Under the pieces are notes generated by a model that was not told the DNA's origin, searched no databases, and worked only from the letters and a program-made list of their open reading frames with translations. The position numbers were made by a program, and so were the translations under genes. From contig JAXIOW010000006.1 in NCBI GenBank assembly GCA_045403215.1, forward strand, positions 1 to 37,869: 37,869 bases of DNA, written 5' to 3'. Each line of letters opens with the position of its first letter. Position 1 is the first letter of the stretch. Positions 9,062-32,525 of this stretch are shown here, in pieces. Source of the stretch: Nitrospirales bacterium (GTDB lineage Bacteria > Nitrospirota > Nitrospiria > Nitrospirales > NS-4).

Positions 9062-9643
9062 ATGCGAAAGGCGGCGCGATCCAATTCACGTGGGAATGTG
9101 AAAGCCGCGCGACTATCACATCGGGAGGGGGCCCCGCGGACGCCCCTCCCGCACCCACTGGTCGGCGTGATCATGGGCTCCAAATCCGACTGGGAGACGA
9201 TGGCCAACACCACCGGGACCCTGGAGAAGCTGGGCATTCCGTTCGAGGTGCGCGTGGTCTCGGCCCACCGCACGCCGGACCAGCTCTTCGAGTATGCCGA
9301 ATCGGCCGAGCGGCGAGGGCTGGAAGTGATCATCGCCGGGGCAGGCGGCGCGGCTCACCTCCCGGGCGTGACGGCGGCGAAGACAACCCTGCCCGTGCTC
9401 GGCGTGCCGGTGGAGTCCAAGGCGCTGAAAGGGTTGGATTCCTTGCTCTCGATGGTGCAGATGCCGGCCGGGATCCCCGTGGGGACGCTGGCGGTCGGGA
9501 GGTCCGGAGCGGTGAACGCCGCGCTCCTGGCGGCGGCGATCCTGGCGAATAAATATCCTAAGGTCCGCGAGGCGCTGTCCCGCTATCGCAAGGCCCAGGC
9601 GGAAGCGGTGCTGGCCCGTCCCGATCCGCGAGAGGCCGTCTGA
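9062..9643 (+). CDS. purE: N5-carboxyaminoimidazole ribonucleotide mutase (class I PurE)
   Basis: [22 protein letters not shown] and VQMPAGIPV motifs. GGAGG SD before ATG 9062. Confidence 0.95.
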
Positions 9644-12147: not shown

Positions 12148-13668
<1,521 letters not shown>

Positions 13669-14705: not shown

Positions 14706-16031
14706 ATGCTCTCCCGGCTCTACGCATGGCTGGATAGTCGGCTCAAGCTGGAGCCGGTCAAGGAAACCCTGCTCGACGAGCCCATTCCAGGGGGCGCGTC
14801 CTGGATCTACGTTTTCGGCTCGGCCACTCTCTTCCTCTTCTTCCTTCAGGCGATCACGGGCATGTTCCTGGCGGTGTATTACGCGCCGACCCCCGACCAC
14901 GCGTACGACAGCATCCGCTACATCGAGACGCAGGTGCTGTTTGGCGCCTTCGTGCGTGGCCTCCACCACTGGGGCGCCTCCGCGATGGTGGTCGCCATCG
15001 GCCTGCACATGCTCCAGGTCTTTTTGTACGGAGCCTACAAACCGCCCCGCGAGCTGATGTGGATGGTCGGCGTCGTGCTCCTGGCGCTCACGATGGGGTT
15101 CGCCTTCACCGGCTATCTCCTGCCGTGGGACCAGAACGCCTATTGGGCCACGCAGGTCGGGATCAACATGGTCGGCAGCGTCCCGTTCGTGGGCACGTTC
15201 CTGGTCAAGGTCATGCGCGGGGGCGACACGCTCGGCGCCCTGACGCTGTCCCGCTTCTTCGCGGTCCACATCCTGTTTTTGCCGGCCGCCATCATGGCGC
15301 TGATCGCGCTGCACCTGTTCATTTTGCGCCGGGTGGGCCCGGCCGGTCCCTGGAGCAAGGAGCGTGCGGCCCAGCGCCGCGAAGCGTTCTATCCCCGCCA
15401 GGTCTTCATGGACGCCGTGGTGATGCTCGGCGTGTACGTGGTCGTGGTGACCCTGGCCTTCTTCATGCCCTTTCCCCTCACGGACAAGGCAAACCCCTCG
15501 GACCACAGTTTCATTCCCGTCCCGGAGTGGTACTTTCTGTTCTATTACCAGTTCCTCAAATACATGGAAGGCCCCATCCTGGGGCCGATCGCCACATGGG
15601 TGATCCCCACGCTCTTCATCGCACTCCTCCTGGCGCTCCCCTTCCTGGATCGCCATCCAGAGCGGACGCCCATCTCACGCCGGGAGGTGATCGTCATCGG
15701 GGTGTTGTTCTTGGTCGGCGTGTTCGTCCTGATCGGGCTATCCATCCGTGATCTCCAGGCCATGAAGCGGACCGATCCGGCCGTCGTCGCCGGCAGGGCC
15801 CTCTATGAGCGGTTCGGGTGCATGGGGTGCCATCGGATCCACGGCGAGGGTGGCGCGGTGGGGCCTGACCTCTCCTATGTCGGGGACCAGCGCGACCGCG
15901 ACTGGCTGATCAAACACTTCCGCGACCCCCAGTCCACCTCGCCGGGATCGATCATGCCCAAGTTCCCGCTGGACGAGCAGGAGCTCAACGACCTCACGGC
16001 GTACATGCTGAGCCTCAAGAAGCGGGTCTAA
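14706..16031 (+). CDS. Cytochrome b fused to a C-terminal monoheme cytochrome c
   Basis: RGLHHWGAS, FTGYLLPWDQ, RFFAVH and PEWY motifs. C-terminal CMGCH, GPDL and axial Met in GSIMP. Confidence 0.94.
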   Translation: MLSRLYAWLDSRLKLEPVKETLLDEPIPGGASWIYVFGSATLFLFFLQAITGMFLAVYYAPTPDHAYDSIRYIETQVLFGAFVRGLHHWGASAMVVAIGLHMLQVFLYGAYKPPRELMWMVGVVLLALTMGFAFTGYLLPWDQNAYWATQVGINMVGSVPFVGTFLVKVMRGGDTLGALTLSRFFAVHILFLPAAIMALIALHLFILRRVGPAGPWSKERAAQRREAFYPRQVFMDAVVMLGVYVVVVTLAFFMPFPLTDKANPSDHSFIPVPEWYFLFYYQFLKYMEGPILGPIATWVIPTLFIALLLALPFLDRHPERTPISRREVIVIGVLFLVGVFVLIGLSIRDLQAMKRTDPAVVAGRALYERFGCMGCHRIHGEGGAVGPDLSYVGDQRDRDWLIKHFRDPQSTSPGSIMPKFPLDEQELNDLTAYMLSLKKRV

Positions 16032-21936: not shown

Positions 21937-22545
21937 ATGGCTGAGATTCCCGTCATCACCATCACCGGCTCCCAGCAGAAGGAGCCGAAGGAGTTCTTCA
22001 CGCGGGTCTTCTGCCTGCGCAAGGAGACGCCCCCGCTGGGGCTGCTGGTTGACTATCTGAAGTCACGGGGTGCCAACCCGATCATCCCGGCGGAGGTCAA
22101 TGAGAAGCTGTTGAACAGCTGGAACTGGGTCGGGATCGAGATCGGGTACGCGAAGGACCGCAAGCCGATACTTGTCACCTGCGTGCGCAAGGGCAGCGCC
22201 CAGGACGGGGTCTTCAAGCAGGACATCGAGGGCCTGCTCAACTACGTGGAAGCCCACCGCGAGCTCGATAACTGGCGCGTCGTGGACCAGTTGCGGGGTT
22301 GCCGGTTCTACATTGCGAACGTCCTGGACAAGAACGACATCACGGAGGAGGGCTACGACTTCAACAGCTGGGTCCTCCAGTTCTTCGAGGAGAACTGCGA
22401 CGGGATGGTCCAGATCGACGGCCAGGGCTTCTACGATCCGGAGACCGGCGAGCTGCTCTTCGAACTGCCGCCGAACGACGACGAGCCCGAGCCGCCCCAA
22501 CCCAGCTTGCTCAATCCGGAGAAGCCGAGCCAGCCCGCCAGCTAG
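21937..22545 (+). CDS. Hypothetical cytoplasmic protein (202 aa)
   Basis: Strong high-GC codon bias. TAGACT lies 6 nt before the ATG. No recognised motif. Confidence 0.8.
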   Translation: MAEIPVITITGSQQKEPKEFFTRVFCLRKETPPLGLLVDYLKSRGANPIIPAEVNEKLLNSWNWVGIEIGYAKDRKPILVTCVRKGSAQDGVFKQDIEGLLNYVEAHRELDNWRVVDQLRGCRFYIANVLDKNDITEEGYDFNSWVLQFFEENCDGMVQIDGQGFYDPETGELLFELPPNDDEPEPPQPSLLNPEKPSQPAS

Positions 22546-22609
22546 GCACGCAGTGAGTCTGGACACATTCCAAAACAGTGTGCTATGGTCATGGCCTCGC
22601 TTGGCCGGT

Positions 22610-22685
22610 GCGCCTGTAGCTCAGTGGATAGAGCACAAGCCTCCGGAGCTTGGGGCCGCAGGTTCAAATCCTGTCAGGCGCACCA
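22610..22685 (+). tRNA. tRNA-Arg (CCG)
   Basis: GCGCCTG/CAGGCGC acceptor stem, CAAGC-CT-CCG-GA-GCTTG anticodon arm, GTTCAAA T-loop, encoded CCA. Confidence 0.96.
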
Positions 22686-22715
22686 ACCCCCAGCTTCTCG
22701 CCGATCCTTCCTGGT

Positions 22716-22791
<76 letters not shown>

Positions 22792-22798
22792 CCCCAAT

Positions 22799-22985
22799 TG
22801 TTGTGCCCCACTTAAAATTTGGACAGGTAGCTTTAGTCAGGTGGATGCAGGAAACCCACTGAAATTATTCAACACCCATCGTAGCGGAAGACCGCCGAGG
22901 CCCTCTCAACAGAGTAATGAGCGAGTGCACTCGGATGTCCCTTGAGAAGTGGAGACTCGAACCAGAAATTAAGTGGGGCAGTACA
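22799..22985. mobile_element. Non-autonomous IS3-family-like miniature element (187 bp)
   Basis: Ends 5'-TG...CA-3'. Terminal IRs TGTTGTGCCCCACTTAAAATTTGG and TGTACTGCCCCACTTAATTTCTGG match at 19/24. No transposase ORF and no clear target duplication. Confidence 0.65.
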
Positions 22986-23092
22986 ACGATGAGGAATACG
23001 GACTCGGAGGGTTAGGAAAACAAATGAGGCAACGATGCCTCCGCAGGGTTAGGTTGTGCAGGGTTAGATTTTAGATGGCATAAATCGATAGC

Positions 23093-23121
23093 TTGCATTC
23101 GATTTTTGTGTACGGTATGAT
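23093..23121 (+). promoter_or_regulatory. sigma70 promoter for the repeat-protein gene
   Basis: TTGCAT-17 nt-TATGAT. Confidence 0.65.
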
Positions 23122-23237
23122 GCCGCCAGTCTAACCTGGCCATGGTACGCCGGTGCTGTGGTCCCCCCGGCCCGGCTCCAGCGTCCAACCCAGGGCAAAC
23201 CCGTAACGAAGGAGATCCCGAAGGAAGGGAGGTACGT

Positions 23238-23795
23238 ATGGATGAGTCCAAGGGTATTGTTGAGTCCGTCAAGGAGGCGATCGTCGGTTCGATCCGGGGC
23301 ACTGGCGAGATCGCGAGCGCCGTAGTTGACACCGTCAGCGGGACCTTGGTGCACACGATCAAGGGCACGGGTGCTGTGGGAACCGCCATCACTAGTATCG
23401 TGTCCGACATTCTGCGGGGCGTCATCCAGGGGACGTCCCAGATCGGCGGCGACGTGGGAGTCGCGGCCAAGGAGGCCGTTCTGGGCGTCCTACGCGGCAC
23501 GAAGGAGGTCGGCGTCGGAGCCAGCGAAGCGATCAGCGCTAGCGCGAGTGCGGTCGTCAAAGCGACGGCTGAGGTCGGGGGCGATGTCGCAAAGGCCGCG
23601 CGGAGCGCCGTGGAGGGCGCGATTGCGGGCGCCAAGGAGTTGGGCATCAACGTCGAGGAAGCCGCAACGGCCGCGGCGACCGGGGCCATTAAGGGCGCCG
23701 GCTCGATCAGCAAGGCGGCGGTGGAGCAGGTCCGAGACGTGGTGACGGGAACGATCAGTGGTGTCAAGGTTGTGGTGAAGGAGCCGTTAAAGTAA
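23238..23795 (+). CDS. Gly/Ala/Val-rich protein of seven 22-aa amphipathic repeats
   Basis: GGAGG SD before ATG 23238. Units such as GSIRGTGEIASAVVDTVSGTLV recur every 22 aa without gaps. Confidence 0.85.
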   Translation: MDESKGIVESVKEAIVGSIRGTGEIASAVVDTVSGTLVHTIKGTGAVGTAITSIVSDILRGVIQGTSQIGGDVGVAAKEAVLGVLRGTKEVGVGASEAISASASAVVKATAEVGGDVAKAARSAVEGAIAGAKELGINVEEAATAAATGAIKGAGSISKAAVEQVRDVVTGTISGVKVVVKEPLK

Positions 23796-23879
23796 CCGGT
23801 CACCGCGCCGCACCTCGCCGTCCACACGCATCGACGACCGCGCCCTGCGGGTCGTGCTGCCACCCAGCGCGAAATTTTC

Positions 23880-23908
23880 TTGACAAAACCACGCCAAAGT
23901 CATGTAAT
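23880..23908 (+). promoter_or_regulatory. Putative sigma70 promoter
   Basis: TTGACA-17 nt-TGTAAT. Perfect -35, imperfect -10. Confidence 0.5.
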
Positions 23909-23966
23909 TAAGGAAGTTTTGCTCTTCAGCCAGCCTTAGCGGGCAGGCGCAGAGGCCTGTAAGTTG

Positions 23967-24027
23967 AAGGCGCAATCGGTCCTCTCCCTTGGACCAAGCG
24001 GGAGAACGCGATTGCGCCTTGTTTTTT
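23967..24027 (+). terminator. Intrinsic terminator-like hairpin upstream of the XRE gene
   Basis: 12-bp perfect arms AAGGCGCAATCG/CGATTGCGCCTT, inner TCTCCC/GGGAGA, followed by GTTTTTT. Confidence 0.7.
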
Positions 24028-24043
24028 GGGGGCAGATCGCTAC

Positions 24044-24385
24044 ATGAGCGAAGCAGACGAACGAGCCTCATTGAATCAGCCCTCTCTAACGGGAGGGGAC
24101 CCCGCTGACACCCCTCCCGTACCCACTGTATCGCCGGTCGGCCTGCGGCGTCGTGGTCGTCCGAAGGGGCAGAGTTACATGGAACCGGCCCTCCTTGTGA
24201 CCATCCGGCAGCGGCTAAAGCTTTCCCAGGCGATCCTCGCCAAGATCGTGGGGGTATCGCGCACCACGGTCAGCATGTGGGAGAACGGACACGTACCGAT
24301 TCCCAAGGCGGCGGTTGAGTTGCTCAATCGGCTGTTCCCCTGGCTCGATCGACCAGTAAGACAATATTCGCAGCCTCCCGTCTGA
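24044..24385 (+). CDS. XRE/Cro-type HTH regulator with AT-hook-like motif
   Basis: RRRGRPK, then IRQRLKLSQAILAKIVGVSRTTVSMWENG. Alternative start at ATG 24179. Confidence 0.78.
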   Translation: MSEADERASLNQPSLTGGDPADTPPVPTVSPVGLRRRGRPKGQSYMEPALLVTIRQRLKLSQAILAKIVGVSRTTVSMWENGHVPIPKAAVELLNRLFPWLDRPVRQYSQPPV

Positions 24386-24475
24386 GCCGTCGCCGGCCCC
24401 GTTCTTCTGCCAACCTTGAAACGCGGCGCCTCGTTGGGTGCCGGGCTTGCCCTGACCAGTAACGAGGGGCTCGCC

Positions 24476-24504
24476 TTGACAAGCCATAGGCTATGAGATA
24501 GGTT
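24476..24504 (+). promoter_or_regulatory. sigma70 promoter for the cyclase fusion gene
   Basis: TTGACA-17 nt-TAGGTT. Confidence 0.6.
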
Positions 24505-24544
24505 GACCTTCTCTCAGGAATAACCAGACGTTGGGTATGGTTGT

Positions 24545-26833
24545 ATGGATCCATCCGATTCGACAGTGCCGCCGGCATCCAGCACTCCTGCGCCTCTGGT
24601 AGCAACGCCTCCTGCTCCGCCCGCTCCGCCTGGCGGACCAAACGCCATCGCTCCGGGAGCCTTCCGCGGTGTCTCGCTGGAAGGGCTCAGAGCCTACCTG
24701 CACAAGAATTTCGAGCAGCTGTTTGTCTTGCTCACGCTCGTCGCGACCGTCCTGATCAACTACTTCATCGAGCAGAAGATCGCCTTCCTGAACTTCTACT
24801 TTCTGCCGATCATCCTGGCCGGCTACTACCTGGGCCGAACGAAGGCCGTGCTGGGTGCCGTCTTATCTTTCCTGGTGATGCTGCTGTACGTGTACCTGCG
24901 GCCCGAGGCGTTTTTGACGCCGCAAGGCTATCTGGCGGAAGACCCGGAGGTCGCGCTGTATCTTCAAATCTTAATCTGGGGGTCGTTCCTCGTCCTGGCC
25001 GGCGCGGTCGTCGGAGGGCTGCATGAGAAGCTGGCCCGGGAGTTCGCGACCACACGCCGGCAGAACGAGGTGCTCCAGAGACAGCAGGATGAGCTCAACA
25101 TGGCCAACCTGGCGCTGAAGGCCAGCGCCGAGAACCTGGCGTTCCTGAATCAGGAGCTCCAGCGCCGGCAGGAGGAGCTCAACCACGCCAACACGGCGCT
25201 GAGGGACTACAGCGAAAACCTGGAGGTCAAGGTACGGGAGCGCACCGAGGAGCTCAACCGCGCCCACGCGTCGCTGAAGGACTACGCCGAAAACCTGGAA
25301 TACAAGGTCACGGAGCGGACCGAGGAGCTGGAGAAGTCCAAGCACTCCATCGAGGCACTCAAAACCAAGGTGGAGGAGGCGCTGTACTCCACCATGGACT
25401 CTTCCGTGGTCAAATTGATCATCGAGGGGCGGCTGCGCAACGAGAAGCGCAACATCAGCGTCCTGTTCTCCGACCTCGTCGGCTTCACCACCCACTCCGA
25501 GCAGAATCCCCCCGAGATCGTGGTCCGCGACCTCAACCGCTACATCGGCGACATGGAACCCATCCTGCTGGCCTATCGCGGCCACATCGACCGGTACATG
25601 GGCGACGGCATCATGTGCGAGTTCGGGGCGCCGCTGGATTTCGAGACCTACCGGATCCTGGCCGTGCTGGCGGCGATTAAGATGCAGGACAAGATGGCCA
25701 AGGTGAATTATCCCTGGGAGATGCGCATCGGCGTGTGCTCAGGGTCCACTATCACGGGCCTGGTTGGGAGCAAGCGCCAGTCGTATACCGCCATCGGGGA
25801 CGTGGTCAACATCGCCGCGCGGCTGCAGAAATCCTGCACGCCGGGCAAGGTGCTGATCGATCGGTACACGTACGAGACCGTCAGCCTCTTCATCGATGCC
25901 CGCAAGAAGCGTGACCTTCCCGCCAAGGAGGTCCTGGGGTCGGACAAGGAGCGGCGGCTGGAGGCGCTCCACGAAAAGGTCGCGGCGGAACCCACCAACG
26001 CCGTGCACCATTTCCAGATCGGGCAAATCCATCTCGGGCTCAACGAGCCGGTCGAGGCCCTGCAGTATTTCGAGCGCGCCTTGCACCTGGATCCGAACGA
26101 GATGAAGTTCAAGCTGGCGTACGCCGAGGCCGGCCTGAAGATCCGCGAGAGCGAGAAGATCGACATCCGGGGGCGACGGCAGCGCATCGAGGCCTACGAG
26201 GTCATCGGCATCAAGGATCCCTTCGAGGACCGCAAGAAGGTCTCCCAGGGCTTCGCGCACGAATACGAGTACGTGCAGAATCTCATCCAGATCCCGTCCG
26301 ATGTGGTCCTGCCCGTGGAGGCCTTGGACGGCAGCATCGGGCATTCCAAGATGGTCGCCATCTTCGCCTACGCCCTGGCCACCTATTTCAACCTGCCGGA
26401 TAAGGATAAACTCGACATCCTCCAAGCCGGCTTTCTGGCGGACATCGGTAAGGAGATCGTGCCTCATCATCTGCTCAACCGCATGGGGAGCCTCAGTTCC
26501 TGGGAACTGGACATGGTGAAGATGCACCCGGTGGAAGGGTCCAGAACCCTGCGGAAGTTGGGCTACGATAACGAGGAGATCATCAAGATCGTGTATCACA
26601 GCCACGAGAACTACAACGGCACGGGCTATCCGGACGGGCTCAAGGGTGAAGACATCCCGCTCGGCTCCCGGATCGTGGCGGTGGCCGACGCGTACGACGC
26701 GCTGATCTCCTGGCGTCCGTACCGGGACCCCTGGGAGCGCCACGTCGCCCTGGACGAAATCGCCCGCGGTGTCGGCAAAGGCGTCTACGATCCCAAGGTC
26801 GCGGATGGCCTGATCAAGATCATGGCGCGCTGA
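24545..26833 (+). CDS. Membrane class III nucleotidyl cyclase with coiled coil, TPR insert and degenerate HD-GYP domain
   Basis: About 4 TM segments, LExKVxERTEEL S-helix repeats, and cyclase motifs FSDLVGFT, DRYMGDG, MRIGV, YTAIGDVVNIAARL. TPR-like EALQYFERALHLDP. HD-GYP region FLADIGK...HSHENYNGTGYP...ADAYDAL..RPYR. Confidence 0.9.
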   Translation: MDPSDSTVPPASSTPAPLVATPPAPPAPPGGPNAIAPGAFRGVSLEGLRAYLHKNFEQLFVLLTLVATVLINYFIEQKIAFLNFYFLPIILAGYYLGRTKAVLGAVLSFLVMLLYVYLRPEAFLTPQGYLAEDPEVALYLQILIWGSFLVLAGAVVGGLHEKLAREFATTRRQNEVLQRQQDELNMANLALKASAENLAFLNQELQRRQEELNHANTALRDYSENLEVKVRERTEELNRAHASLKDYAENLEYKVTERTEELEKSKHSIEALKTKVEEALYSTMDSSVVKLIIEGRLRNEKRNISVLFSDLVGFTTHSEQNPPEIVVRDLNRYIGDMEPILLAYRGHIDRYMGDGIMCEFGAPLDFETYRILAVLAAIKMQDKMAKVNYPWEMRIGVCSGSTITGLVGSKRQSYTAIGDVVNIAARLQKSCTPGKVLIDRYTYETVSLFIDARKKRDLPAKEVLGSDKERRLEALHEKVAAEPTNAVHHFQIGQIHLGLNEPVEALQYFERALHLDPNEMKFKLAYAEAGLKIRESEKIDIRGRRQRIEAYEVIGIKDPFEDRKKVSQGFAHEYEYVQNLIQIPSDVVLPVEALDGSIGHSKMVAIFAYALATYFNLPDKDKLDILQAGFLADIGKEIVPHHLLNRMGSLSSWELDMVKMHPVEGSRTLRKLGYDNEEIIKIVYHSHENYNGTGYPDGLKGEDIPLGSRIVAVADAYDALISWRPYRDPWERHVALDEIARGVGKGVYDPKVADGLIKIMAR
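25172..25330 (+). repeat. Imperfect 75-bp (25-aa) tandem repeat in the coiled coil
   Basis: EELNHANTALRDYSENLEVKVRERT / EELNRAHASLKDYAENLEYKVTERT / EEL. Confidence 0.8.
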
Positions 26834-26969
26834 CAGGTCCCCCCCGCGCCCCCGCCCCGTTTACGCCGGCGTGGCGCCTAGCCGCATTCTTGCCCTTCCA
26901 AGTCCGCCCCCATCGGTACTCTTGAAGACCCCGCGGGAAGAAGCTTAGTATGATCCAGAGAGGCCTTCC

Positions 26970-28028
26970 ATGAAGACTTACCATATCATCGGCTGGGGAC
27001 TCCTGACAGCGGCGGCCTGTCTCCTGCCCTCTCCGGTCCGAGCCGATTCGCCGGTCCTGGCGACCGTCGGCGGCACGCCGATCACGACGGCGGAGATCGA
27101 GCAGGCGCTCCGGCTCCCGCTCTATGACTTGGAAGTGGAGAAGTATCGCCTGACGCGACGGAAGCTGGACCAGACGATCGTCGAACGGTTGCTTGCGCGG
27201 GCGGCGGCCGAACGCGGGCAGACGGTGTCGGCCTTCGTCACGGCGGAGGTCCAGGCCCAGATCGCGGCGATCACGCCGGAGGAGATCGCCGCGCGCGTGC
27301 AGGCGGACCGGGCCAAGCTGCCGCCGGACGCAGAGCAGGCCCACAAAGAGGCGCGGAGCTCCCTGGTCCGCGAACGCGCCCGGCGAGCGCTCCAGGAATT
27401 GGTCGAGCGGTTGTCCCGCGAGGCCCAGGTGACAGTGACACTCCGTCCCCCTGAGCCTCCCGTCATGACCGTCCCCGTGGGAGACGGCCCGGCGTGGGGT
27501 CCACCGGCGGCGCCGGTCACGATCGTCGAGTTCGCAGATTTCGAATGTCCGGTATGCAAGGAGAACCTCCCGATCTTGCAAGAGATGCGCAGCCTCTATC
27601 GGGAGCAGGTCCGGATCGTCTACCGGAACTTTCCTCTCGCGTCGCACCCGCAGGCACGCCCGGCGGCCGAAGCGGCCAACTGTGCGCACGAGCAGGGCCA
27701 GTTCTGGGCGTATCACGACGCCCTTTTCGCCAAGGCGCCCGATCTCCAACCGTCGGATTACGTGCAGTTGGCCGAGCGTCTGAAGTTGAACGCCGCGGAC
27801 TTCGCCGACTGCCTGAGCAGTGATCGGCCGAAGGTCGCCGTAGCCAGAGACCTCGCGGACGCCCAAGCGTTGGGGCTCAGCGGGACCCCGACCTTCTTCA
27901 TCAACGGGCGCTACCTGTCCGGGTTCCAATCATTGGACGCGCTCCGGCAGTACATCGACCGCGAGCTGCAGGCTGCCGGCAACGGTGCGCATCCGGGAGA
28001 CAAGGCCCCGGAGGCAGGGCCCCGTTGA
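26970..28028 (+). CDS. Exported DsbA/thioredoxin-fold oxidoreductase with SurA-like N-terminal helical region
   Basis: Signal peptide, VLATVGG..IT, FADFECPVC and SGTPTFFING. Confidence 0.9.
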   Translation: MKTYHIIGWGLLTAAACLLPSPVRADSPVLATVGGTPITTAEIEQALRLPLYDLEVEKYRLTRRKLDQTIVERLLARAAAERGQTVSAFVTAEVQAQIAAITPEEIAARVQADRAKLPPDAEQAHKEARSSLVRERARRALQELVERLSREAQVTVTLRPPEPPVMTVPVGDGPAWGPPAAPVTIVEFADFECPVCKENLPILQEMRSLYREQVRIVYRNFPLASHPQARPAAEAANCAHEQGQFWAYHDALFAKAPDLQPSDYVQLAERLKLNAADFADCLSSDRPKVAVARDLADAQALGLSGTPTFFINGRYLSGFQSLDALRQYIDRELQAAGNGAHPGDKAPEAGPR

Positions 28029-29154: not shown

Positions 29155-29239
29155 GCGAGAGTGGCGGAACTGGCAGACGCGCGAGACTTAGGATCTCGTG
29201 GGAACAACCGTGGGGGTTCAAGTCCCCCCTCTCGCACCA
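29155..29239 (+). tRNA. tRNA-Leu (TAG)
   Basis: GCGAGAG/CTCTCGC acceptor stem, CGAGA-CT-TAG-GA-TCTCG anticodon arm, long variable arm, encoded CCA. Confidence 0.96.
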
Positions 29240-29268
29240 ATGAGACCGTCGCAACACTGACTTCACCG

Positions 29269-30555
29269 ATGAAACTCGAAGTGACCGAATTGGGCCCGGT
29301 GAAACGGGCCGTCCGGATCGAAGTGCCGGCGGAGGACGTCGCCAAGCGGTTCCGGGACGTCTACGCGGACCTCCGGAGTCAGGCGCATATCCCGGGCTTT
29401 CGCCCCGGCAAGGCGCCGCTCGCCCTGCTGGAAAAGCGCTATGCGAAGGCCGTCGAGGACGACGTCGTCCGCTCGCTTGTCCCCGAGTATTATGAGAAGG
29501 CCATGAAGCAGGTGGGGTTCGCCCCCGTCGCCGTGGATCTGCCGCCGATCGAACGGATCAAGATCAAGGACGGCGCCCCGCTGGTCTTCACGACCACCGT
29601 GGAGATCAAGCCTGTCTTCGAGCTCCGGGAGTACAAGGGCGTCACGCTCAAGCAGGACAAGCGGGCCATCACGGAGGAGGAGCTCGACAAGGCAATGCAG
29701 GTCCTCCGGCAGCAGCATGCTCAGATCGAAGTGGTCAAGGGGGATCGGGGCGTCGTCGAGGGCGATTACGTGCAGGTCCGCCTCGAGCAGGTCGAGGGGC
29801 CGAACCAGCCGGACGGATTCAAGCCCGAATCCCACCTGTTCCGCGTTGGCGACAAGACCCAGTTCTACGGGCTGACGCTGGACGAGGCGGTCCTCGGCAA
29901 GAAAAAGGACGAGGCACTCGAAGTCAGCCAGGAAGGGACGGGTACAGCCCGGGGGATGGTGCAGACGATCAAGCAGAAGGTCCTGCCTGAGCTGGACGAC
30001 GAGTTCGCCAAAGACCTGGGCGACTACAAGACCCTGGCGGAGCTCCGCGAGAAGGTTCGCACGCAGCTCGAGCAGAGCCTGAAGCGGGACATCGAAGAGA
30101 CGTACAAGGACCAGCTCATGAAGCGGCTGGTGGACCTTCACCACTTCGACATTCCAGAGTCGCTGGTCCAGCGCGAGCTGGACGCCATGGTCCAGAGCGA
30201 GCGCACGCGGCGGCACCGGATCCGGCACATGCTGTCGCAGGGGGAGGCGCGCCATCAGGAGGACGAGAAGTTCGATGTCCGGAAGTTCCGGGAGGAGAGC
30301 CTCCCCACGGCCCAGCAGCGCGTCAAGCTGGGCTTGGTCCTGGAGGCGATCGCGCAGAAGGAAGGCGTCGCGGTGACCGACGCGGACCTCGAGTACGAGT
30401 GCCGCCAGATGGCACGCGCGCTGCAGGTGGACGTGGCGGAGGTGGTGAAGATGCTGAGGGTCGGGGGCGAGGACGCGGTCGAAGACCTCAAGTCCCGCAT
30501 CCTGGCGGAGAAGGCCTTGCAGTTCGTCTATGAAAAAGCCATCATCCAGGTCTGA
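29269..30555 (+). CDS. tig: Trigger factor
   Basis: Ribosome-binding signature IPGFRPGKAP and LPELDDEFAK. Upstream of clpPX. Confidence 0.95.
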   Translation: MKLEVTELGPVKRAVRIEVPAEDVAKRFRDVYADLRSQAHIPGFRPGKAPLALLEKRYAKAVEDDVVRSLVPEYYEKAMKQVGFAPVAVDLPPIERIKIKDGAPLVFTTTVEIKPVFELREYKGVTLKQDKRAITEEELDKAMQVLRQQHAQIEVVKGDRGVVEGDYVQVRLEQVEGPNQPDGFKPESHLFRVGDKTQFYGLTLDEAVLGKKKDEALEVSQEGTGTARGMVQTIKQKVLPELDDEFAKDLGDYKTLAELREKVRTQLEQSLKRDIEETYKDQLMKRLVDLHHFDIPESLVQRELDAMVQSERTRRHRIRHMLSQGEARHQEDEKFDVRKFREESLPTAQQRVKLGLVLEAIAQKEGVAVTDADLEYECRQMARALQVDVAEVVKMLRVGGEDAVEDLKSRILAEKALQFVYEKAIIQV

Positions 30556-30610
30556 TGAACTCCCAACCTGAGAGTGTGAGATAATGAGAGATATGAGAGA
30601 GACCTCCCAG

Positions 30611-31246
30611 ATGCTCATCCCGATGGTCATCGAGCAGACCAACCGGGGCGAGCGCGCCTACGACATCTATTCCCGCCTCTTAAAGGATCGTATTATCTTC
30701 ATCGGCACGCCGATCGACGACGTGGTCTCGAACCTCCTCATCGCCCAGCTGCTGTTCCTCGAAGCCGACGACCCCGAGAAGGACATCAACGTGTATGTCA
30801 ACACGCCGGGCGGATTGGTGACGGCCGGACTGGCGATCTACGACACGATACAGTACGTCAAGCCCGCCATCGCCACCATCTGCGTCGGCCAGGCCGCGAG
30901 CATGGGGGCGCTCCTGCTGGCCGCCGGGACGAAGGGCAAGCGCTACGCGCTGCCGAACTCCCGGATCATGATCCACCAGCCGCGCGGCGGGTTCGAGGGC
31001 CAGGCCACCGACATCGGCATCCAGGCCGAGGAGATCATCAAGATCCGCAAGCGGCTGGACGAGATCATGGCGAAGCATACCAACCAGTCGGTCGAGAAGG
31101 TCCACAAGGACTCGGAGCGCGACTATTTCATGTCCGCGGAGGAGGCGAAGGCCTACGGCCTCGTGGACGAGGTCATCACGCGGGCGCCGAAGAGCTTCCG
31201 GCCGTCCAAGGATGGCTCCGACAAGAATTCCGATATAGTGAAGTAG
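30611..31246 (+). CDS. clpP: ATP-dependent Clp protease proteolytic subunit
   Basis: [12 protein letters not shown], and catalytic triad in AASMG, MIHQP and ERD. Upstream in-frame ATGs at 30584 and 30593. Confidence 0.97.
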
Positions 31247-31274
31247 CGCGGGGGCTCGGGAAGAGGGAGAGCTG

Positions 31275-32525
31275 ATGGCGAAGCAGGAAAAAGGGGACGC
31301 GCAGTTGCGGTGCTCCTTCTGCGGCAAGGGACGCGAGGAGGTCCGGAAGCTGATCGCCGGGCCCACGGTCTACATCTGTGACGAGTGCGTGGACCTCTGC
31401 AACGACATCATCGCAGAGGACCTGGAGGAGAAACAGGAAGCCGTCTCCTCCAAGCTGCCCAAGCCCAAGGAGATCATGCGCACCCTGGACCAGTACGTCA
31501 TTGGCCAGGAGCGGGCCAAGAAGGTGCTGTCGGTCGCCGTCCACAACCACTACAAGCGCATCTCCTCCAACACGCTGGACGACGTCGAGCTCCAGAAGGG
31601 CAACATCCTCCTCATCGGCCCCACCGGCACCGGCAAGACCCTGCTGGCCCAGACCCTGGCCCGCATCCTCGACGTGCCGTTCACCATCGCCGACGCGACG
31701 ACGCTGACCGAGGCGGGCTACGTCGGCGAGGATGTGGAGAACATCATCCTCAAGCTGGTGCAGGTCGCCGATTACGACGTGGAGCGGGCGGAGCGCGGCA
31801 TCGTCTACATCGACGAGATCGACAAGATCAGCCGCAAGAGCGACAGTCCCTCAATCACGCGGGACGTCTCGGGCGAGGGCGTGCAGCAGGCCCTGCTCAA
31901 GCTCATCGAGGGGACCGTGGCCAACGTCCCGCCCCAGGGCGGGCGCAAGCACCCGCATCAGGAGTTCATCCAGGTGGACACGGCGAACATCCTGTTCGTC
32001 TGCGGGGGCGCCTTCGTCGGGCTGGAGACCATCGTCGAGCAGCGCCTCAACCAGAGATCGATCGGCTTCGGCGCCGAGATCAAGGGCAAGCACGAGCGGC
32101 GCACGAGCCACCTGCTGTCGAAGGTGCAGCCGGAAGACCTGCTCAAGTACGGGCTGATCCCCGAGTTCGTGGGACGGCTGCCGGTCGCCGCCACGCTGGA
32201 GGAGCTCGACGAGAAGTCGCTCATCCGCATACTTACGGAGCCCAAGAACGCGCTCCTCAAGCAGTATGAGAAGCTCCTGGCCTTCGAGAAGGTGAAGTTG
32301 AAGTTCACCGAGAACGCCGTGGTCGCGGTGGCGCGCAAGGCGTTCATGCAGAAGACCGGCGCGCGGGGCCTGCGCTCCATCCTCGAAGAGGTGATGCTCG
32401 ACGTGATGTACGAGATCCCCTCCCAGCGCGAGATCCGCGAGTGCGTGATCACGGAGGACGTGATCGAGGGCAAGGTCTCCCCGCTGCTCATCAAAGACCA
32501 CGAAAAGGGCGTCAAGTCGGCTTAG
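31275..32525 (+). CDS. clpX: ATP-dependent Clp protease ATPase subunit
   Basis: CSFC...CDEC Zn finger, [20 protein letters not shown] loop and GARGLR. Confidence 0.98.

Follow-up and report, generated by a model that had tools for sequence, protein, structure and literature searches.

The closest described systems to the protein considered here are HD-GYP domains that act as phosphodiesterases or have been turned to regulation. In PmGH, eight residues (E185, H189, H221, D222, H250, H276, H277 and D305) serve as metal ligands, and according to the available text of Bellini et al. (PMC4159591), alanine mutants essentially abolished phosphodiesterase activity for each ligand except E185 and D305 (reduced). 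In DvhD of Desulfovibrio vulgaris (9RBZ/9RC0), HD is changed to SQ and HH to MN; the 1.8 Å structure contains no metal, and no hydrolysis of cyclic di-GMP (c-di-GMP) occurred with any ion tried. The accessible part of that paper (PMC13090378) gives dissociation constants of 99 nM for c-di-GMP and 501 nM for 3'3'-cyclic GMP-AMP (3'3'-cGAMP), describes how the ligand splays the preceding stalk helices by about 10 Å and drives dimerisation of the isolated domain, and reports that HD-GYP domains dimerise in both DvhD and PmGH. Other members work through protein contacts: HnoD (HD to SE, HHE to QLE) inhibits the EAL protein HnoB, and ECA3548 and Xanthomonas campestris RpfG act via protein interactions, as summarised in the available sections of Galperin and Chou. 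Here we analysed a gene at 24545..26833 (+ strand) in a stretch of 37,869 nucleotides from a Nitrospirales bacterium (hereafter the window). From an ATG start it encodes 762 amino acids plus a stop, and it joins a membrane sensor, a class III nucleotide cyclase and an HD-GYP domain without two of the usual histidines in one polypeptide, which we call the cyclase-HD-GYP protein.

An earlier sequence-only reading of this DNA had placed the transmembrane (TM) sensor, cyclase and HD-GYP domain in a single chain, and both the open reading frame (ORF) and the Pfam domains agree with it. The HD-GYP domain covers residues 591-762 (26315..26830, + strand; Pfam and alignments), with AD for HD and SHE for HHE. 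It is matched by HD_5 (residues 598-752, E 1.5e-31, 109.9 bits against a cut-off of 27.2) and by HD (residues 598-719, E 5.7e-15). The HD_5 match, the GYP motif and the RxY[K/R] motif together make the domain a member of the HD-GYP family; the best NCBIfam match of the protein, a NosR-family HD-GYP response regulator, fell under its cut-off. The AD that stands in place of HD was found where that reading had located it, at 26438-26443 within GFLADIGK (26429-26452), and A632 (codon 26438-26440) aligns to PmGH H221. The second change had been described as HSHE for HHHE. The replacement of His by Ser is real, but the canonical motif is HHE and the change corresponds to PmGH H276 becoming S686 (codon 26600-26602, within YHSHENYNGTGYP, 26594-26632), with H687 and E688 (the equivalent of PmGH E278) kept and H685 at no ligand position. 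GYP (G694-P696) and RPYR (R724-R727) are retained, as had been noted.

We mapped the PmGH residues onto the protein by sequence alignment. Five of the eight metal-ligand positions are kept: H189, D222, H250, H277 and D305 correspond to H600, D633, H661, H687 and D715. The other three are lost, fewer than in DvhD: H221 is replaced by A632, H276 by S686, and E185, an optional third-metal ligand, by G596. Outside the ligand set, K225, Y285 and R314 are kept as K636, Y695 and R724, and K317 is conservatively changed to R727. The histidines of HD and HHE had been named as metal ligands, and H221 and H276 are indeed among those listed for PmGH in the available text of PMC4159591, where H221A and H276A each essentially abolish phosphodiesterase activity. 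Since these two residues align to A632 and S686, two sites that are essential in PmGH are both mutated naturally in this protein. By analogy with PmGH, the term "catalytically degenerate" thus appears apt, and the HD-GYP domain is likely to be dead as a phosphodiesterase.

The state of the HD-GYP domain is shared far beyond this genome. A word-indexed search returned 966 matches, and the best 120 of the 966 (54-96% identity) nearly all carried PF00211 and PF13487. An exhaustive search at E<=1e-30 gave 260 representatives, including about 45 full-length fused forms with identity down to about 31%. The family spans at least eight phyla. Its 69 named loci (L018-L086) comprise 36 from Pseudomonadota, 12 from Nitrospirota, 6 from Elusimicrobiota, 5 from Acidobacteriota, 2 each from Thermodesulfobacteriota and Methylomirabilota/Rokubacteria, 1 each from Bdellovibrionota and Nitrospinota, and 4 without a group; the only cultured hosts among them are two Pseudoalteromonas strains, P. 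denitrificans DSM 6059, whose orthologue (L054) has AD with an unchanged HHE, and Pseudoalteromonas sp. NBT06-2. Among related genomes the gene is present in 17 of 41, including 6/6 of the same genus, and the Met start is common to the Nitrospirales orthologues. The source metagenome-assembled genome (MAG) is 2.11 Mb and 91.55% complete, and its closest named relatives are Nitrospirales MAGs.

The sequence-only reading had called for a check of whether the His-to-Ala change is conserved in orthologues. Among 121 homologues A632 was found in 118 and S686 in 119, and each of H600, D633, H661, H687, E688 and D715 persists in 118-119. Across phyla the Ala632 codon takes all four forms (GCG, GCC, GCT and GCA; the tally leaves out five rows that could not be located), while among 11 close orthologues codons 632 and 686 showed no synonymous variation (GCG 11/11, AGC 11/11). 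We then compared the ratio of nonsynonymous to synonymous substitution rates (dN/dS) between regions of 11 Nitrospirales coding sequences by the Nei-Gojobori method; the window and 13 further loci had been tried, and L009, L011 and L021 were dropped by the ORF filter. The ratio was low in the HD-GYP domain (0.103) and the cyclase core (0.108) and higher in the coiled coil (0.21), the TM module (0.31) and the N-terminal leader (0.54), with dS at 0.5-1.1 and with kin that are not independent samples. Mean identity to distant rows was 0.59 for the cyclase, 0.52 for HD-GYP and 0.49 for the TM part. The degenerate HD-GYP domain is under strong purifying selection and is constrained like the cyclase core. 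That it might be a decaying remnant, a sequencing error or a strain-specific pseudo-domain, with orthologues holding an intact HD, is refuted: AD occurs in 118/121 and SHE in 119/121 homologues from many phyla, dN/dS is 0.10, and no stops occur in any of the orthologues listed.

The family also records how the ligands were lost. In 45 fused representatives (50%-identity clusters with an aligned HD-GYP), HD and HHE are both intact in 18, only the HD His is lost in 12, xD is combined with SHE in 7, and 8 are otherwise altered or gapped. We built a tree of 56 rows from the cyclase and TPR columns only, excluding the HD-GYP columns, by an IQ-TREE quick search with midpoint rooting (L028, L034, L038, L074 and L084 were dropped as truncated or unparsed). 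Four fully intact rows, from Elusimicrobiota (L076, L080 and L082) and Nitrospinota (L059), are basal in this tree. Of the 52 others, 51 have A, S, L, F, C, R or G in place of the HD His; the exception, L077, retains it and carries changes elsewhere among the ligands. On this tree, loss of the first His of HHE took place at least four times, and constraining the 34 rows without it to a single clade was rejected (delta log-likelihood 248.7, p-AU 9.5e-98), for a group that was defined after the tree was seen. The Ser codon at this position is TCC in Pseudohongiella and AGY in the large clade and in Acidobacteriota. Further erosion in other subclades affects H600 (to F, Q or R), D633 (to E or Q) and D715 (to E), while the GYP Tyr, K636, R724, Y726 and R727 persist in 52-54 of the 56 rows. 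The metal ligands have gone and the substrate contacts have remained, as would be expected if an enzyme had become a binding module. The ligand loss in these HD-GYP domains is ancient, recurrent, varied in route and conserved. A side observation is that several multidomain proteins without a cyclase (873-2014 residues; P0190, P0199, P0201, P0206, P0209 and P0214) have CD or RD for HD with HHE kept, so loss of the HD His is not confined to cyclase fusions.

If the domain is no longer an enzyme, DvhD offers the direct HD-GYP precedent, described in the available text of PMC13090378, for the general claim that degenerate c-di-GMP enzymes become receptors. Among solved structures, DvhD ranks second as a sequence match to this HD-GYP domain (E 4.5e-21), and by alignment the family retains six of the nine contacts in the canonical site of DvhD. 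In the 121-row homologue set these are Y695 (DvhD Y621, PmGH Y285; 108 rows), R724 (DvhD R650, PmGH R314; 119 rows), Y726 (DvhD Y652; 109 rows), R727 (DvhD R653, PmGH K317; 119 rows), L720 (DvhD M646; 108 rows) and L650 (DvhD L577; 114 rows). On the strength of this analogy, we give about an even chance that the HD-GYP domain binds a cyclic dinucleotide. The same residues bear on the simpler idea that the domain is only a scaffold, which would help the cyclase to dimerise or keep it stable whether or not a ligand is bound. Class III cyclases function as dimers, and HD-GYP domains form dimers in DvhD and PmGH, both of which suit a scaffold; such an element needs no invariant nucleotide-contact and metal-ligand residues across phyla, however, and we consider it quite improbable.

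The cyclase core covers residues 295-453 (25427..25903, + strand; Pfam and alignments) and contains D310, R350, D354, T415, N422 and R426. Guanylate_cyc (PF00211) matches residues 300-447 with E 1.8e-20 and 73.7 bits against a cut-off of 21.9, at profile positions 5-156 of 183 only. The closest solved relatives are the bacterial structures 2w01, 6fht, 3r5g and 1wc0; for 2w01, 3r5g and 1wc0, residues 295-453 gave E values of 6e-24 to 5e-22 as a single sequence and 1.5e-41 as a profile. The two metal-binding Asp residues in SDLVGFT and GDG are D310 and D354, and the Asn/Arg pair in VNIAARL is N422/R426. These four had been claimed as kept, and each is present in 119-120 of 121 homologues and in 60/60 cross-phylum rows. 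The residue at position 415 is Thr in 58/60 and Ser in 2/60 of the cross-phylum rows. At a dN/dS of 0.108 this domain is among the most tightly constrained parts of the chain. Taken from the sequence, the cyclase is likely to be active. R350 (codon 25592-25594) lies in IDRYMGD (25586-25606), at the purine-specifying (substrate-specifying) position of class III cyclases. Among the 121 homologues this position holds K in 65, R in 50 and H in 4, and among the 60 cross-phylum rows K in 53 and R in 7, where the R rows are the close clade of the cyclase-HD-GYP protein; it aligns to Glu in Cya2 (2w01) and to Lys in the engineered 6fht. Lys together with Thr marks class IIIb adenylate cyclases, and we use the label IIIb for residues 295-453. 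The protein is most likely an adenylate cyclase that would use ATP to make cyclic AMP (cAMP).

The domain order had been given as TM sensor, coiled coil, cyclase and HD-GYP. These parts are all there, but the order omits a pair of TPR repeats of about 82 residues inside the cyclase. A TPR signal extends over residues 474-537, with TPR_1 at 489-518 (28.1 bits against a cut-off of 27.8). Three fused relatives that lack TPR (P0189, P0228 and P0245) have an uninterrupted cyclase match, and alignment to them identifies residues ~454-535 as an insertion between the penultimate and the last cyclase strand. The match to PF00211 stops at profile position 156 of 183 because this insertion interrupts the cyclase fold. 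The TPR-like helical insertion thus spans residues 454-535 (25904..26149, + strand; TPR_1 and alignments). The last cyclase strand or strands follow at residues 536-555 (26150..26209, + strand; alignments), with a K/R-G-K/R motif at 542-544, and align to the final strand of the TPR-less relatives, so that the cyclase fold appears complete. A family profile compared with CyaB (3r5g) likewise matched in two collinear pieces flanking the TPR, the second of them (CyaB residues 171-193) weak alone (i-Evalue 8.5e2). By these sequence alignments, the predicted place of the TPR pair is inside the cyclase fold. The linker from the cyclase to the HD-GYP domain spans residues 556-590 (26210..26314, + strand); compared with the TPR-less relatives it adds about 26 residues after the last strand, and its mean identity is 0.34. 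Cyclases with TPR repeats and no HD-GYP also exist, among them a paralogue in the same genome (L002) and P0211 and P0255; in some such proteins, REC or PAS domains are followed by a cyclase with TPR that is repeated two or three times.

The N-terminal half begins with a Pro/Ala-rich cytoplasmic leader (residues 1-45, 24545..24679, + strand), which alignment shows in the close Nitrospirales subclade only; distant orthologues begin at about residue 46, without it. A membrane sensor cassette of four TM segments follows at residues 46-165 (24680..25039, + strand). By hydropathy the segments lie at about 58-77, 79-97, 98-120 and 134-161, and the outer loops are very short. The same cassette precedes HisKA/HATPase kinases (P0270 and P0254) and a GAF domain (P0231), and it directly precedes intact HD-GYP domains without a cyclase in P0212, P0218, P0219 and P0230; P0212 is 42% identical to the cyclase-HD-GYP protein over the cassette and 37% over HD-GYP. 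The cassette of one relative gave a weak DUF4118 match. MASE9, MASE10 and MASE11 do not fit, as they have eight, six and seven TM segments according to the available part of Galperin and Chou, against four here; MASE12 was also judged not to fit, though that part states no TM count for it. The cassette is apparently a promiscuous membrane sensor module undescribed so far. From it a coiled coil (residues 166-294, 25040..25426, + strand) runs into the cyclase. A repeat search found the coiled coil and, within it, two repeats at residues 219-237 (25199-25255) and 244-262 (25274-25330) that resemble the S-helix, a concept set out in PMC1592074 (consulted in part).

These parts suggest how the protein might work. 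The sequence-only reading had proposed an active cyclase under allosteric control by a cyclic dinucleotide, which our results bear out in part. The protein would be a one-component membrane protein in which a signal sensed within the membrane by the 4-TM module passes through the S-helix coiled coil to a homodimeric class IIIb cyclase. The HD-GYP domain would derive from an active c-di-GMP phosphodiesterase, a descent for which the intact fused forms that still exist give the reason, and would have lost hydrolysis with its two His metal ligands. Having kept nucleotide-contacting residues, it could serve as a regulatory receptor for c-di-GMP or possibly 3'3'-cGAMP. By analogy with DvhD, the ligand would change the dimerisation of HD-GYP together with the stalk or linker before it. 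That change might re-set the cyclase dimer, so that cAMP output would depend both on a membrane signal at the N terminus and on c-di-GMP at the C terminus. For the whole chain, we put the probability of an active adenylate cyclase tuned by a phosphodiesterase-dead HD-GYP domain that binds c-di-GMP or cGAMP at roughly 0.4, going by sequence and by analogy. A wider proposal is more tentative: that the protein is a single-chain c-di-GMP-gated adenylate cyclase, a post-translational converter of c-di-GMP into cAMP signals found in at least eight phyla, and that the family preserves the path from bifunctional forms (Elusimicrobiota and Nitrospinota) through loss of the HD His to an AD/SHE receptor, with His-to-Ser changes that arose repeatedly and independently. 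We regard this as possible rather than probable.

Several points weigh against the gated-cyclase reading. On the cyclase side, Arg350 replaces the usual Lys and leaves the substrate uncertain. Within the HD-GYP domain, DvhD K582 and Y523 are replaced by L655 and G596, and no residue clearly corresponds to E668. The precedent itself differs in that DvhD also lost the equivalents of D633, H687 and D715 and binds its ligand without metal. In the family studied here, five of the eight positions that bind metal in PmGH (H600, D633, H661, H687 and D715) are invariant, as is E688; the domain could thus still hold a metal site and may differ from the metal-free receptor type of DvhD. The available text of Galperin and Chou further notes that an RpfG-type protein without a key His was reported to be robustly active, so that motif loss is no proof of inactivity.

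The last two of these points would suit a remodelled catalytic HD-GYP, in which the five ligand positions hold one or two metals in an altered geometry and the domain slowly hydrolyses c-di-GMP as a trigger enzyme, or acts on a different phosphodiester (pGpG, cGAMP or even the protein's own cyclic mononucleotide), making the chain bifunctional. Besides the ligand residues that persist in 118-119 of 121 rows and the active RpfG-type protein, the replacement residues Ala and Ser are fixed rather than variable, and Ser686 is convergent and looks adaptive rather than decayed. The 18 of 45 fused representatives that keep the full set imply that bifunctional members probably exist. On the other hand, each of the PmGH mutants was inactive (PMC4159591, available text) and both changes are combined here, and the further losses at H600, D633 and D715 in other subclades argue against a catalytic centre conserved throughout the family. 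We consider remodelled catalysis unlikely for this protein.

The genomic neighbourhood bears on both the gated-cyclase reading and another alternative. We looked through 142 ORFs that flank the gene at 36 diverse loci, and at synteny, and found no recurrent signalling partner, which counts against the gated cyclase. It also counts against a protein-protein module, in which the dead HD-GYP would control a GGDEF, EAL, HD-GYP or PilZ protein, so that cAMP and c-di-GMP effects run in parallel and no ligand gates the cyclase. Such a module has precedents in HnoD, ECA3548 and X. campestris RpfG (Galperin and Chou, in part), and the GYP motif is retained. The strongest conservation, however, is at the pocket (R724, Y726, R727, Y695 and K636) and not at an identified surface. 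We judge this alternative unlikely.

Another point against c-di-GMP gating is that GGDEF, EAL and SMODS gave no match in the 91.55%-complete MAG, nor did DAC. The MAG does encode five class III cyclases, with 5 matches to cyclic-nucleotide-binding domains, 10 to PilZ, and at least four other HD-GYPs with the canonical HD...HHE; because the latter keep these motifs, c-di-GMP turnover is covered elsewhere in the genome. Each of the 6/6 congeners has 1-3 GGDEF genes, 15 of the 17 family-bearing genomes have GGDEF, and the 5,047-bp neighbourhood of one congener GGDEF gene (L098) has no counterpart in this assembly. We read the absence of GGDEF as an assembly gap that says little either way. The idea of an organism without c-di-GMP synthesis was dropped in view of the GGDEF genes in 6/6 congeners, the 10 PilZ matches and the GGDEF neighbourhood missing from the assembly. 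Nothing supports the cyclase itself making a cyclic dinucleotide in place of GGDEF.

Within the genus, the gene is preceded by PutA (- strand), two hypothetical genes, tRNA-Arg, tRNA-Lys, a repetitive ORF and an XRE-type helix-turn-helix (HTH) gene, and followed on its 3' side by a DsbA-like gene, a hypothetical gene, a GNAT gene, tRNA-Leu, tig, clpP and clpX. The HTH gene (24026-24385, +), on the same strand and 160 nt upstream, matches HTH_3 (E 1.1e-8) and weakly resembles MqsA; it is kept only within the genus (72-78% identity) and is absent from the sister genus. The repetitive ORF (23142-23795, +) encodes 217 residues rich in Ala, Gly and Val with only a sub-threshold Phasin_2 match (E 9.6e-4), and a terminator-like hairpin follows it at 23852-23872. 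Scanning 23700-27100 for promoters and terminators gave nothing above shuffled sequences, and the only Rfam elements in 22500-27200 were two tRNAs, with no riboswitch and none in the leader. The genes tig-clpP-clpX (29161-32525, +) lie about 2.3 kb downstream in Nitrospirales, with three genes and a tRNA between, and directly adjoin the orthologue in four loci of the Acidobacteriota clade (L048, L049, L051 and L053); this shared neighbourhood may be either old synteny or coincidence.

Elsewhere in the window, a second HD-GYP protein (12148-13668, -) combines GAF with a PmGH-type HD-GYP domain and has canonical HHE...GYP; its HD (207-292) and HD_5 (373-489) matches lie about 80 residues apart, suggesting an insertion in the domain. 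At 9122-9160 (+) a GC-rich palindromic repeat of about 40 nt, also present on at least nine other contigs at 83-95% identity, folds at -34.7 kcal/mol (z -2.24) and looks like a REP-type element. One ORF at 14706-16031 (+) encodes both the N- and the C-terminal part of cytochrome b, joined to a domain of c-type cytochromes.

The family would be of interest as a natural series for the transition from phosphodiesterase to receptor. Its members are frequent in lineages that matter to the environment and are for the most part uncultured (Nitrospirales, Methylomirabilota, Acidobacteriota and Pseudohongiella), and the family is experimentally accessible because two cultured Pseudoalteromonas strains carry an orthologue. 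We found no description of a cyclase-HD-GYP fusion in the literature searched, including Galperin and Chou (without its Table 3 and supplementary figures) and the consulted parts of Galperin 2005, the S-helix paper PMC1592074, a Leptospira survey and a c-di-GMP/cAMP review. Both component types are known, and their combination in one chain seems undescribed.

Compared component by component, the cyclase is like Cya2 (Synechocystis, 2w01), CyaB (Pseudomonas aeruginosa, 3r5g) and CyaC (Spirulina, 1wc0) in its metal Asp pair, its Asn/Arg pair and the Thr at the second specificity position. It differs from them in the TPR pair of about 82 residues between its last two strands and in the C-terminal HD-GYP, and it has Arg at the Lys position where Cya2 has Glu. 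The HD-GYP domain is the same domain as that of PmGH (4MCW), V-cGAP3 (5Z7C) and PA4781 (4R8Z), with E values of 1.5e-25 to 1.2e-17, and shares with them GYP, the Lys of HDxGK, RxY[K/R] and five of the eight metal-ligand positions; by contrast, it has Ala, Ser and Gly for H221, H276 and E185. With DvhD it shares the loss of HD and of the double His, the retained GYP Tyr and RxYR, and a place in a membrane protein behind a helical stalk, a role that the linker here may possibly play. In DvhD the partner domains are dCache and PAS, and the protein exerts inside-out control over a periplasmic protease and has no cyclase; the available text of PMC13090378 makes no mention of cyclases. HnoD, ECA3548 and X. 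campestris RpfG, as far as the consulted sources describe them, likewise keep a degenerate HD-GYP for regulation rather than hydrolysis, but they have REC or PilZ partner domains, act through protein contacts and are not fused to a cyclase. Tlr0485 (a cAMP-binding GAF with HD-GYP) and Bd1971 (a cAMP-sensing EAL), which we know from partial accounts, resemble the cyclase-HD-GYP protein in that one protein couples cAMP and c-di-GMP. In those known single-protein examples cAMP controls the breakdown of c-di-GMP, whereas here c-di-GMP sensing would control the synthesis of cAMP, so that a c-di-GMP-gated cyclase, if true, would be the missing reverse link.

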